Assembly: GCA_018992565.1 (NCBI GenBank)
Contig: JACVGW010000015.1
Span: 1 to 41,151, forward strand
Direction of reading: 5' to 3'
Length of the DNA: 41,151 nucleotides
Origin: Theionarchaea archaeon
GTDB lineage: Archaea > Methanobacteriota_B > Thermococci > Methanofastidiosales > SZ-28-30
A program made the position numbers. Shown here in pieces: positions 3,001-6,000 of this stretch. Positions within the stretch are counted from its first letter, which is position 1; every line of letters begins with the position of its first letter.

Positions 3001-6000
3001 TTCCAGAGATATCTCTTCCCTGCAGGCCCGGCCTGCATTCACATCACAGTGGATACAATGCAGGTTGCAGCGCGACGTGATCTCGAAGTACAGATTCGTC
3101 AAGGGAGGTAGTGATGGAACATTCACAGACAACCCCTCAAAATGAGGCGAATCAAAAGCAATGATAAGACTCTTTCTCAGGTAGCGAACAATGGTGAGAA
3201 AAGTATCAAAAGAAACCTCTGACTTCACCTGCTCATAAATGTGCTCCAAGGTACACCTACCATTGCACAGCTGAAGAATTCTATATCCCATCTCATCCAA
3301 CATGCACCACGATGGAATATGAGGGTTGAGGATGAAATTCATGCCATTCTCCTTGAACAGCAGCGCACCCTCAATTTGGCACGGTTTTTTGCCTATATCC
3401 ACTCTTACACCTTCTAGCACGTGAATGCTAGTGGTACGACACTGGAAATCGCGTCGAACGCAGATTTCATAAGGACTATGTCTTCGTCCATTTTTCTCAC
3501 CTCTTTCCCCAGTGTCACGCTGCCATATATAAAGCTTTCTCTTCCAATCTTCCTGACATGTTAATGCGGCAAGAATGACACCAAAAGAAACAAAAGGTTT
3601 CTCACTCAAATCTGGACTGCATCTGAAGTCATTGAGAAGAATTCCTGCAGTCAGAGCCCCGGAGAAGGGTTCAGGGTGACTATTGAGGTCTGTACATACA
3701 TTCAGGGCGGGGCAGTTTCCATGACTGCAAACCGGATTATCACCAGCACGTGAGTTCCATACCCATAGGGATCTTTGAAAAACATATAATGGGACCCATC
3801 ACTGTCTTCTGGATTCCCCACCTCCAGATGAGGATGTACACCTGACTCAGAAATCTCCCGAATCAGAGTGTTAGTCTCTGAGGTTCCAATTAAAATCAGG
3901 TTGAGCTGCTTCTTATCCTCTTCTGTAACCTCTTCGTCGAACTTAACAATATCCACGATGCGTATGTCAGCAAGTTCGCCACTGGAAAATCCCACTTTTG
4001 TGGCAATAGATGAGGCAAACACAATGTCCAGAGAAGGGCAGTTTTCCCCAACCACTATGACAAAAGCGGGGGTACCTTCTGCGTTCAGGAAAAAGGGAAG
4101 TCGCGCGAAGTTCACCATGGAAACACCATGGATTTCTTCTCCAAGGAGCTTATAAACCTACTCCTTTCTATGAGCGATCTTCAGGAATAATTGGTAGTGG
4201 ACGAAGATGCGAAATCCTTTTAAAGAAAAAAGAAGAGATAGTGTTGGTGAGGGATGACGAACAATCTGTCTTTCCGAACGGTGAAGAACTCACGACGAAC
4301 CGACCTCACTCATTTATTGTTTTGGATTACAGGCTGATTGCATGAGTACGGGTTATTTGATAGGCAACTGGAGCCGATTCTACATAGTAGATGAGAATAA
4401 TCGTTCTGTGGCAAAGACAGAGTTTTCAGGCTCGGAGCAGGAATGCACAGAGAAGGTCCGCAACCTGCGGAGAGGTGTTCCACCCCCGGAGATCATCACT
4501 CTGATAGAGGAAGCAGGACCTCTGGTAGAAACACTGGTCGTTGAAGATGATGCACTGGCTAGAACCCTCCAGCAGACTACTGGGTGTACTGTTACTGTGC
4601 CTGCGTCCCCTAACGACATGTTTCGCAGGCTCAGGCTCATGTTCTTCAAGAAAGGAATTCACAGCAGGCATCCTCTGGCTGTCTCCACAGCACGTGAAGA
4701 CAAGAAGGAAGCAGACACACATCCAGACATGCGCATCCTGCGCCTGGTGGACATGCTCACTATGTATGACGAATCATACCAGTTCTACAACAATTTCAAG
4801 GAAACCTGGTATGAGAATAGGTTTTCAGATAAAGAATCCCCCGTAATTCAACCAGACCTCCAGCAGGAAGAGTCAATCGTCAGGAATACGGATGGACTTC
4901 TTGAAGTGGTGTCTGTCCTGCGCAAGAGAACGCGAAAAGCACTGGCTCTTGTGCTGAGAGAATATTCACCAACCCTCTACAACGTAGCTGGACTGGAAAT
5001 TGCTGCCAGGCTCATTGCTGAAGCTGGCTCTCTGGAGAGGTTGGCGACAATGTCTGCCGGGACTATTCAGATTCTGGGTGCCAGGAAGGCCTTCTTTAGA
5101 GCAAAGCATTCAGGATCACCTTTTCCCAAGTTTGGGATCATTTTCTCCCATCCCTATATTCAGGCACTACCCTCTCATCACAGAGGTAAGATGGCCAGAC
5201 TCCTGAGCTGCCAGATTGCCATTGCTGCCCGGGCAGACGTTTACACACACAGAGATATCTCAAGACAGTTGCGATTGAAGCTCAAGAAGAGATTTTACCA
5301 GCTGAGGGGAATACTATGACGCAAGTTTCACACACCACGAACCCCCGTGTTTTCTACATGCTCCAGGGGAGGAAGAAAGTCCTGCTGACACAGGATGCGT
5401 CCCCCGAATATTCTGTGTACGGAGAACAAAAAGTAGAGGCTGATTCACATATCTTCCGAACCTGGGATCCGTACAGGAGCAAACTTGCTTCATCCATCCT
5501 GGAAGGCCTCCCCTCTATACCCATCAGGGAAGAAGATACTGTCTTATACCTGGGAGCTGCCAACGGCACCACTGCCTCTCATATTTCCGACATTGTAGGG
5601 AGTTCTGGAGTAGTTTACTGTGTTGAATTCAGCCCTGTTCCCTTTGGGGATTTAATCCGCCTGGCAGAGCACAGGACAAATATCTTTCCCATTCTGGCAG
5701 ATGCACGTGATCCTGTGCAGTACTCCTTCATGGTGGGGGGAGTGGATGTCCTCTACTGTGACCTGGCACAACCGTCTCAATGTGAGATTGTCCTTTCCAA
5801 TGCAGCCCGCTTCTTGCGGTCAGGAGGGCACCTCCTGCAGGCCATCAAAGCATCTTCTATCGATAGCTCGCTTCCCCCTTCACAGGTATATGAAACAGCA
5901 GTATCTGAACTCTCAAGAGGGTTTGCCATTCGTTCAACAATTCCCCTTGACAGATATCAGAAAAAGCATATCATGGTATGGGGCGTATACGCACCATAAC

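Follow-up and report, generated by a model that had tools for sequence, protein, structure and literature searches.

Box C/D RNPs are generally viewed as one shared set of proteins that serves many guide RNAs. The canonical archaeal particle, exemplified by the S. solfataricus structure 3PLA, combines L7Ae, a Nop5 dimer, fibrillarin, and a dual-guide sRNA. Archaea are described as having a single fibrillarin gene, rare exceptions aside, second genes being reported in three Euryarchaeota (3 of 148 species); the portion of that survey consulted says nothing of a guide RNA, a Nop5 partner, or variant boxes accompanying these duplicates (PMC7608942). Nop5 paralogs specialized for different box motifs are also described for eukaryotes, in the form of Nop56 and Nop58, in passages of PMC7229835. 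The locus reported here resembles the latter in having a specialized Nop5 paralog; however, Nop56 and Nop58 heterodimerize in one particle, whereas this paralog is accompanied by an enzyme and a guide of its own and is modeled as a homodimer. With the canonical sRNP it shares the layout of the RNA, spacers of 12 to 13 nt, 10-bp duplexes, the fifth-nucleotide rule, the three-domain Nop5 fold, and the fibrillarin fold. It differs in having C.C and A.C in place of U.U, in its short Nop5 (325 aa) with altered motifs, and in encoding guide and proteins as a unit next to a separate housekeeping set. In this locus the guide is genetically linked to a Nop5 and a fibrillarin of its own, and it bears a systematic change at the one k-turn position that C/D RNAs otherwise conserve strongly (PMC5689011).

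The cassette lies in the window (the whole stretch of 41,151 nucleotides that was analyzed) and represents a second C/D set beside the normal machinery of an archaeon from sediments. An initial annotation had placed a 64-nt C/D guide RNA before a second nop5-fibrillarin pair; the anatomy at 4246-4309 and the Pfam matches of the two proteins bear this out, and a separate Nop5 and fibrillarin pair, the housekeeping set, is indeed present on contig C76. The features are as follows.

4218..4225, + strand: TATA-like A/T-rich element TTTTAAAG, its center some 25 nt before the RNA's first stem base
4246-4310 (64-65 nt), + strand: variant box C/D guide sRNA, directly upstream of the divergent Nop5
4246-4252 with 4304-4310, + strand: terminal stem of the sRNA, 6 Watson-Crick pairs and 1 G.U pair
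4254-4260, + strand: C box AUGACGA
4261-4273, + strand: D' spacer (D' guide), 13 nt
4274-4277, + strand: D' box CCGA, followed by a 4-nt loop to C'
4282-4287, + strand: C' box UGAAGA
4288-4299, + strand: D spacer (D guide), 12 nt
4300-4303, + strand: D box CCGA
4313..4325, + strand: T-rich stretch after the sRNA
4342-5319, + strand: divergent Nop5, 325 aa (Pfam Nop PF01798, E 6.8e-32)
5316-5999, + strand: second fibrillarin, 227 aa, its start overlapping the Nop5-like stop by 4 nt

Throughout, the parts of the RNA follow the canonical archaeal dual-guide order and spacing, including the short D'/C' loop and spacers of about 12 nt. Compared with the consensus RUGAUGA/CUGA, the G.A pairs, the 3-nt bulge, and the 7-bp stem are present, and the boxes read AUGACGA and CCGA. 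Both motifs retain the tandem G.A pairs and deviate at the same third pair, as had been claimed: U.U is replaced by C.C in C/D and by A.C in C'/D', with the C on the D/D' side in each case. An Rfam E-value scan of 3800-6400 yielded five matches, all far under their gathering scores and none significant for the sRNA (the best one near it is SNORD112 at 4223-4274, with 19.2 bits against a gathering score of 58). This carries little weight because C/D families are guide-specific. Likewise, the minimum free energy of the sRNA is no better than that of shuffles (z 0.63), as expected of a k-turn RNA. The A/T-rich element TTTTAAAG has a counterpart in the related metagenomic locus L010, where TTTTTTAAAC at 1600-1609 precedes the RNA start at 1630 by an equal distance. 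On the basis of this distance, which we take to be typical of archaeal TATA elements, TTTTAAAG is a putative promoter element of the sRNA. The T-rich stretch at 4313..4325 may terminate the sRNA as an oligo-T signal, act as the TATA-like element of a leaderless mRNA, or do both.

Both spacers match adjoining stretches of the organism's own 23S rRNA in helix 93, as the initial annotation had stated. Nucleotides 2-11 of the 12-nt D spacer pair 10/10 with LSU 2645-2654, and positions 3-12 of the D' spacer (counted from D') pair 10/10 with LSU 2653-2662, with an additional G.U pair at 2652. Each fits the fifth-nucleotide register: the fifth position from D pairs with U2648 and that from D' with A2655. 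Computed numbering equates these with E. coli U2593 and A2600, the same two positions that the initial annotation had given as approximate. A 10-bp guide duplex is also the geometry of solved archaeal C/D RNPs, according to the part of PMC9670817 consulted. In composition-matched shuffles, an in-register 10-mer rRNA match arose in 3573/400000 and 3538/400000 cases (about 0.9% per spacer), and both spacers matched at once in 28/400000. When LSU 2640-2665 is folded locally, U2648 and A2655 form a pair and A2657 (E. coli A2602) bulges out. The two targets face each other as one base pair in a small hairpin, the distal stem of helix 93, and A2602 of the peptidyl-transferase center is two nucleotides away. 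Helices 90-93 of domain V are described in passages of PMC7994747 as a hotspot of sRNA-guided methylation in archaea. The cassette RNA can credibly be regarded as a C/D guide directed at helix 93.

The start codon of the cassette Nop5 lies 32 nt after the sRNA. The protein comprises an N-terminal domain, a short coiled coil (helices 128-160 and 171-208), and a C-terminal Nop domain (about 191-320). A profile of its subfamily recovers the C-terminal domain of Nop5 in the PDB (3id5_A residues 211-376, E 9.6e-40), and its AF2 model (pLDDT 85) has full-length archaeal Nop5, 3pla_A, as its top Foldseek match (E 1.9e-17); the match to PF21572 is weak (25.9 bits against a cut-off of 27.8). A homodimer modeled via helices 125-203 scores 0.52, with 0.00 for the best control, at least 45% contact agreement between runs, and a partner pLDDT of at least 73. 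Of proteins solved as pairs, 20 of 30 attain the mark for this score, as does 1 of 23 solved as single chains; since solved Nop5 dimers exist, the pass may reflect likeness to them only. The N-terminal domain, predicted to bind fibrillarin, and the coiled coil through which Nop5 dimerizes are both present. The protein falls below the NCBIfam aNOP56 equivalog cut-off (NF011121; 148 bits against 452), and its signature motifs are altered, with GAEK reading GARK and PKHG reading PKFG. Scored against 129 canonical Nop5 proteins (percentages are canonical frequencies), the subfamily replaces the E of GAEK (91%) with K/R, the H of PKHG (81%) with F, a K (85%) with Q, and an S (83%) with an invariant G. 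Seven RNA-contact residues of S. solfataricus Nop5 are named in the part of PMC9670817 consulted. Hand mapping from a profile alignment places four of these as kept in the cassette protein (Q296, K316, K336, R339); the other three differ and are also variable among canonical proteins. None of the substitutions could be located at the 3b.3n pair; on Nop5 contacts to this pair, the literature search gave only general statements and the residue list.

The second fibrillarin matches PF01269 over practically its full length (E 1.2e-77, profile positions 4-225 of 227) and scores 250 bits with NCBIfam NF003276, whose cut-off is 113. Its sequence displays the SAM-binding motif LGAA.GTT.SH and is 45% identical to the host's own fibrillarin. 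Both cassette proteins belong to subfamilies of their own, far from the canonical pair of the host, a conclusion supported by several searches. For the Nop5-like protein, the claimed subfamily of 15 is recovered as 15 full-length proteins, after which E drops from 8e-87 to 2e-27; among 1.84 billion sequences it has one representative, the next match being at E 8e-52. For the fibrillarin, the top 15 entries (including the window's own protein and a 182-aa fragment of the same) show at least 62% identity and the following entries at most 53%. In a quick tree this group forms one clade with an SH-aLRT of 100 and a stem of 1.12 changes per site. Both subfamilies are conserved at 50-99% identity, and both ORFs are intact in the present genome. 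Their distribution is patchy: this genome is the only one of 133 in its class with the Nop5-like protein, and only 1 of the 34 genomes of the order has two fibrillarins. This supports the view that the cassette is accessory to the host genome.

A metagenome scan recovered only two further cassette loci, L010 and L011, both with the order RNA, Nop5-like protein (54% identity), and fibrillarin. A protein search of genome contigs found no further locus, and an 18-base pattern of the RNA gave 15 matches there, all bacterial, against an estimated chance expectation of about 17. Among viral contigs, the protein search found none and the RNA pattern a single match devoid of box architecture. L011 is 92-93% identical to L010 at the DNA level, and a 266-nt deletion truncates both its genes; the cassette is therefore capable of decay. 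As L011 is a damaged near-copy of L010, conservation of the RNA rests on two lineages rather than three. Joint conservation of RNA and proteins, which the initial annotation had read from three loci, thus holds for the present genome and L010. These two agree fully in the stem, the four boxes, and the 10 bases with which the D' guide pairs, and diverge in their flanks. L011 shares the stem and three of the boxes, its D' box reading CCTA instead of CCGA. In both metagenomic loci the D' guide keeps its 10 pairing bases, and two of the three spacer bases outside Watson-Crick pairs differ. The D guide is not conserved: in L010 and L011 its spacer is 11 nt long with a different 3' part and has no evident rRNA target.

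We consider that these features probably reflect an accessory, nearly self-contained box C/D RNP module operating along the following lines. The 64-65-nt sRNA would be transcribed, probably from its own promoter, and processed, and would fold so that C/D forms a terminal k-turn and C'/D' an internal k-loop; for these two elements the 3b=C rule of PMC4382518 predicts that ions suffice for folding. Both would be bound by the single L7Ae of the host, the only one found in the genome (the other PF01248 match is L30e). A homodimer of the cassette Nop5 would dock on the L7Ae-RNA sites, with one cassette fibrillarin per Nop5. Each spacer would then form a 10-bp duplex with nascent 23S rRNA, placing the 2'-OH of U2648 and A2655 in the fibrillarin active sites for methylation. 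As only the A2600 guide is kept in the second lineage, we propose that methylation of A2600 is the core function. We judge the cassette to be a real accessory C/D RNP module.

The A2600 target itself is ordinary rather than specific to the cassette. In a relative of the same family, G031, the D guide of an sRNA with canonical boxes (on its contig C23, around 14376-14397, minus strand) targets this adenosine in an identical register. Through this RNA its homolog in the present genome was found, at C137:3565-3619, outside the spacer limit of the relaxed own-genome scans. It pairs 10 and 8 nt with the LSU, which overturns the claim that the cassette RNA is the sole dual-guide element of the genome with rRNA-matching guides. 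These two sRNAs have in common with the cassette a target region in domain V, but carry UGAUGA/CUGA in all four boxes and have no attached protein genes. Among the 34 genomes of the order, a guide for the U2593 equivalent was found in the present one, and none was found in the 33 others. A strict dual-guide scan of the own genome gave 4 matches and a half-mer scan 270, at the level of noise. A TGACGA...CCGA scan with a stem of at least 4 gave 6, and inspection by eye found internal boxes only in the window (contig C49). A second TGACGA/CCGA half-mer, at C144:11261, was dismissed as a guide, being devoid of further boxes and of an rRNA match.

Taken together, the box changes and the Nop-domain substitutions suggest that the cassette Nop5 prefers its own guide, and dedicated recognition of variant boxes by a variant Nop5 is plausible from the sequences. 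On this basis we infer that the cassette may be distinct from the general machinery through orthogonal recognition. A rather unlikely, though serious, alternative is plain redundancy: the organism acquired extra C/D machinery with an ordinary guide, the boxes drifted under tolerance, and the two sets are interchangeable. According to the parts of the respective sources consulted, L7Ae folds every k-turn variant tested (PMC5689011) and Nop5 contacts mainly the backbone of the GA stem (PMC9670817). Given this tolerance and these backbone contacts, a canonical Nop5 might accept the cassette RNA and the cassette Nop5 canonical guides. Retention of key conserved RNA-contact residues in the cassette Nop5, the service of the same target by a canonical sRNA in G031, and the lack of a cassette-specific L7Ae in the genome point the same way. 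Against this, the deviation takes one form, a C at the D/D' position of either motif, and is kept in L010 at 54% protein identity, and passages of PMC5689011 describe the U.U pair as strongly conserved in C/D k-turns generally. Moreover, several near-invariant Nop-domain residues are exchanged subfamily-wide, the guide accompanies the gene pair in all three loci seen, and the stem under the fibrillarin clade is very long.

The dedicated module also admits a bolder extension, which we advance tentatively as a possibility: a natural orthogonal methylation system in which Nop5 reads the third k-turn pair (C on the D/D' side) as a code. Guide, scaffold, and enzyme would then make up a portable unit that puts a chosen methyl group on rRNA independently of the host's general C/D machinery and free of interference from it. 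This unit might pass between Methanofastidiosia and Theionarchaea lineages and might tune or protect the peptidyl-transferase region. If the pairing is specific, Nop5 would read the sequence of the k-turn and not its shape alone, the cassette would offer a ready-made orthogonal guide-enzyme pair for targeted 2'-O-methylation, and the presence of a defined rRNA modification beside A2602 would vary patchily, as an accessory trait. G031, a member of the same family with canonical parts directed at the A2600 adenosine, offers a natural control. The earlier description of the cassette as transferable finds no direct support: no mobility genes were found, with no integrase or transposase seen beside the cassette, and the named sources of four subfamily proteins (P0050, P0062, P0326, and P0331) are all Theionarchaea or Methanofastidiosia. 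GC content is flat along the whole window.

The surroundings invite a further reading, which we regard as improbable, namely that methylation of helix 93 shields the ribosome against a compound binding the peptidyl-transferase center or an rRNA-cleaving toxin, possibly a product of the surrounding island rich in radical SAM genes. The target does lie two nucleotides from A2602, and the neighbors of the cassette include five radical SAM genes (a SPASM domain occurs in one and B12-binding domains in two) together with genes for a PaaK-like ligase, glycosyltransferases, a methyltransferase, and an MFS transporter. The segment 1054-15902 has no DNA match in same-genus genomes, and 15903-36000 is collinear with one of them, G032, at 79-81% identity; however, insertion relative to G032 cannot be demonstrated because its contig ends exactly at the synteny break. 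The neighbors in L010 and L011 (PQQ propeller, DUF1232, DUF4097, and DUF885) are unrelated, so that no biosynthetic linkage is conserved, and the island genes would equally suit envelope or lipid chemistry. G031, in turn, is predicted to methylate the same site with housekeeping parts, and we know of no drug or toxin that acts at the U2593/A2600 nucleotides.

Least probable of all is that the element is not a working guide but a 5' leader k-turn for L7Ae/Nop5 autoregulation or part of a relic cassette on its way out: its position 32 nt ahead of a start codon, the decayed L011, the match lost by the D guide of L010 and L011, and the regulation of translation by L7Ae through leader k-turns (described in parts of PMC5539422 and PMC6298567) would fit, but two in-register 10-bp complementarities to adjoining rRNA stretches would be superfluous for a regulator, the ORFs are intact, their subfamilies are conserved, and contigs from RNA libraries cover both genes.

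These contigs, which are at least 99% identical and cover portions of both genes, may stem from DNA. They give zero cover of 4150-4338 and hence of the sRNA, which, for contigs only, is no evidence of absence. Contigs from two runs of one study start at 4339 and 4342, which is no more than a weak hint for the reading of the T-rich stretch at 4313..4325.

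The cassette is best explained as an accessory C/D RNP, in which the L7Ae of the host would join the cassette's own Nop5 dimer, fibrillarin and guide in a single particle. Its first part is an RNA:

4246-4310, plus strand: sequence with the reading of a complete archaeal-type dual-guide box C/D RNA

This RNA comprises, in order, a 7-nt 5' stem, box C (AUGACGA), a 13-nt spacer, box D' (CCGA), a 4-nt loop, box C' (UGAAGA), a 12-nt spacer, box D (CCGA) and the 3' stem, the terminal stem being made of six Watson-Crick pairs and one G.U. The tandem G.A pairs are kept in both C/D and C'/D', and where the consensus has U.U as the third pair of the motif (3b.3n), C/D has C.C and C'/D' has A.C. 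A TATA-like A/T-rich element lies about 25 nt 5' of the RNA, and a T-rich run lies downstream of the RNA. The Rfam scan of 3800-6400 gave no significant match, all five matches falling far under the gathering scores, a result that carries little weight because C/D families are guide-specific.

The rRNA operon of the genome (G000) lies on contig C127. Nucleotides 2-11 of the D spacer pair with LSU 2645-2654, and the D' spacer pairs at 10 of 10 positions with LSU 2653-2662, with a further G.U at 2652. By the fifth-nucleotide rule, the predicted targets are U2648 and A2655 in the genome's own LSU numbering. The initial annotation had placed them at about E. coli U2593 and A2600, and alignment to the annotated E. 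coli 23S gene bears this out (U2648 = U2593, A2655 = A2600; E. coli A2602 corresponds to A2657). In a fold of LSU 2640-2665, U2648 and A2655 pair with each other in a stem of 3 bp closed by a GUGA loop, and A2657 is bulged, so that the two guides address the two sides of one and the same base pair. The cassette RNP would 2'-O-methylate this U2593-A2600 pair, in a hairpin that we take to be helix 93. With shuffled spacers, an in-register 10-nt rRNA match arose in 3573/400000 and 3538/400000 cases for the individual spacers and in 28/400000 for both together. The 2-11 geometry of the D spacer is also that of the 10-bp duplex of solved archaeal particles, as described in PMC9670817, and PMC7994747 names helices 90-93 as a hotspot of sRNA-guided methylation in archaea.

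A fifth-position pattern for guides to the A2600 equivalent matched 7 of the 133 genomes of the class, against six backward-read control matches in total. One of the matches lies in G031, a genome of the same family:

L088 1501-1522 = G031:C23:14376-14397, plus about 40 nt upstream, minus strand: canonical-box sRNA of G031, found by the A2600-guide pattern

Its D spacer pairs with the LSU stretch that the cassette D' guide uses, in the same register, and shares its predicted target adenosine (E. coli A2600). In this family, C/D guidance to this adenosine is therefore nothing out of the ordinary, and what is unusual is the way in which G000 reaches it, rather than the target itself. Two other matching genomes, G112 and G116 of genus g13, have a common C'-to-D half with a similar spacer, and the pattern for U2593 guides matched G000 alone among the 34 genomes of the order. 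Within G000, a permissive dual-guide pattern, which allowed any base where the boxes vary and loops of 2-15 nt, recovered seven elements, two with rRNA complementarity in both spacers, namely the cassette RNA (10 + 10 nt) and a second sRNA:

C137:3565-3619, plus strand, outside the window: canonical box C/D sRNA pairing with LSU 2556-2565 (10 nt) and LSU 2611-2618 (8 nt), domain V

The earlier claim that the cassette RNA is the only dual-guide element of the genome whose guides hit rRNA accordingly does not hold. The C137 sRNA, a housekeeping guide that makes a useful contrast to the cassette RNA, has UGAUGA/CUGA in all four boxes and no obvious terminal stem, and its D' guide marks it as a homolog of the G031 sRNA. 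The box-pattern and dual-guide scans of G000 found no further variant-box sRNA. An intergenic candidate canonical C/D sRNA at C13:6480-6528 (minus strand, outside the window) has a 6-bp terminal stem, consensus C and D boxes, a poor C' box and a D' spacer pairing over 10 nt with SSU from position 898. A TGAAGA-plus-spacer stretch occurring three times outside the window (C11:13951, C86:26576, C89:6439), with 10-12 nt complementary to LSU 1894-1905, is probably a repeated gene segment rather than a set of guides.

The assembly (154 contigs, 88% complete) also encodes a canonical Nop5 and fibrillarin pair, adjoining each other on C76, and one L7Ae, the other L7Ae-family match being L30e. Plain redundancy of the cassette with the general C/D machinery is a serious alternative. 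The box changes deserve attention because U.U is strongly conserved at 3b.3n in C/D k-turns (PMC5689011), 3b=C is reported to permit ion-driven folding (PMC4382518) and G000's canonical guide keeps U.U.

The two overlapping ORFs of the cassette begin 32 nt downstream of the RNA. In the first (325 aa), Pfam Nop is found at E 6.8e-32, the match to the archaeal Nop5/56-related N-terminal domain falls slightly short of its cut-off, and the NCBIfam aNOP56 model gives 148 bits against a cut-off of 452. Over its whole length the AF2 model of this protein (pLDDT 85) matches archaeal Nop5 3pla_A (E 1.9e-17), and its coiled coil is short. A homodimer model via helices 125-203 scored 0.52 against 0.00 for the best control, with at least 45% of contacts agreeing between runs and a partner pLDDT of at least 73; among proteins of solved structure, 20 of 30 pairs and 1 of 23 single chains reach the mark that it passed, and the pass may reflect likeness only, because solved Nop5 dimers exist. 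A protein search gave 48 matches, 15 of them full length (50-99% identity), after which E jumps from 8e-87 to 2e-27 and the C-terminal domain alone aligns; among 1.84 billion representatives the subfamily is a single protein, with the next match at E 8e-52. Set against 129 canonical proteins (300 aa or longer) drawn from these matches, the 15 subfamily members differ at positions 81-91% conserved elsewhere (E of GAEK to K/R, H of PKHG to F, one K to Q and one S to an invariant G). Four of the seven RNA-contact residues that PMC9670817 names for S. solfataricus Nop5 are kept (Q296, K316, K336 and R339, hand-mapped from the alignment), and the other three vary in canonical Nop5 proteins too. None of the substitutions could be placed at the 3b.3n pair. 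Taken together, the box changes and the Nop-domain substitutions suggest preferential recognition between the variant boxes and the cassette Nop5.

The second ORF (227 aa) is a full-length fibrillarin (Pfam, E 1.2e-77), 45% identical to the host's own and 38-47% to those of 29 other loci of the order. The top 15 database entries, including the window's own protein and its 182-aa fragment, show at least 62% identity, and the next at most 53%. In a quick tree of 78 rows (14 subfamily members, fragment P0052 being omitted; every third of P0064-P0168; 29 of the 30 proteins from the order, without one that is 167 aa long), the 14 fall into a single clade (SH-aLRT 100) whose stem measures 1.12 changes per site and which is separate from the order's own clade. 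Contigs matching in size and adjacent accession numbers (P0331/P0062) show that the Nop5-like and fibrillarin subfamilies travel together. Fibrillarin duplicates are on record in three archaea (PMC7608942). Our searches of the main text of open-access papers turned up no account of paired Nop5 and fibrillarin genes that come with a cis-encoded guide of their own bearing variant boxes.

Among the 133 class genomes, the Nop5-like profile has a full-length match solely in G000, and fibrillarin, present in 32 of the 34 order genomes, occurs in two copies in G000 alone. The source names of entries P0050, P0062, P0326 and P0331 are Theionarchaea or Candidatus Methanofastidiosia, and near-identical DNA was detected in sediments and soils, in 18 runs belonging to 7 studies; 13 of the runs may be the source. 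Positions 15903-36000 are collinear with the same-genus genome G032 at 79-81% identity, and the contig therefore belongs to this lineage. DNA matches to positions 1054-15902 are absent from the two genomes of the same genus, an absence that cannot be read as an insertion because the G032 contig ends at the break; GC content is flat across the window, and no mobility genes were seen beside the cassette. Five radical SAM genes stand in this stretch of about 15 kb; one carries a SPASM domain and two carry B12-binding domains. The stretch also encodes a PaaK-like ligase, glycosyltransferases of GT28-like and GT1 type, a methyltransferase and a GFO/IDH/MocA oxidoreductase. Ribosome protection tied to this island is a minor alternative. 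The radical SAM, ligase, glycosyltransferase and methyltransferase genes, with an MFS transporter, neighbor the cassette, and the neighbors in the related metagenome loci L010 and L011 (PQQ propeller, DUF1232, DUF4097, DUF885) are unrelated to them.

The initial annotation had the cassette conserved across three loci, of which L010 stands as a witness. It has the same order of parts and a Nop5 of 54% identity, and its RNA is identical to that of G000 in the stem, in each of the four boxes and in the 10 D' spacer bases that pair; outside these 10 Watson-Crick pairs two of the three D' spacer bases differ, and the flanks diverge. The A2600 guide would accordingly form the conserved core of cassette function. 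The 11-nt D spacer of L010 is shared with G000 in its 5' part alone and has no evident target in G000 rRNA, a difference that looks as if a CGTCGT repeat had lost three bases. L011, in turn, is a decaying copy of L010 (92-93% identical, D' box CCTA) and no third witness: a 266-nt deletion (L011 1696-1697 versus L010 2484-2749) removes the Nop-domain end and the fibrillarin start, truncating both cassette genes. A second deletion of 668 nt (L011 2776-2777 versus L010 3836-4503) removes a DUF4097 gene.

A leader or relic role for the RNA element or the cassette, for which the truncated L011 genes might be cited, is likewise minor. Two metatranscriptome runs of a single study yielded contigs, at least 99% identical, that cover 4339-4532, 5259-5570 and 5700-5872, and no contig from these runs covers the sRNA. 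Both 5' pieces begin at the Nop5-like start codon (4339 or 4342), which hints weakly at an mRNA that has no leader and is distinct from the sRNA. Strand and ends cannot be told from such contigs. In L010 and L011, a GGAGG stands five bases before the start codon of the Nop5-like gene, and the mRNA may be leaderless in G000 and leadered in these two loci.
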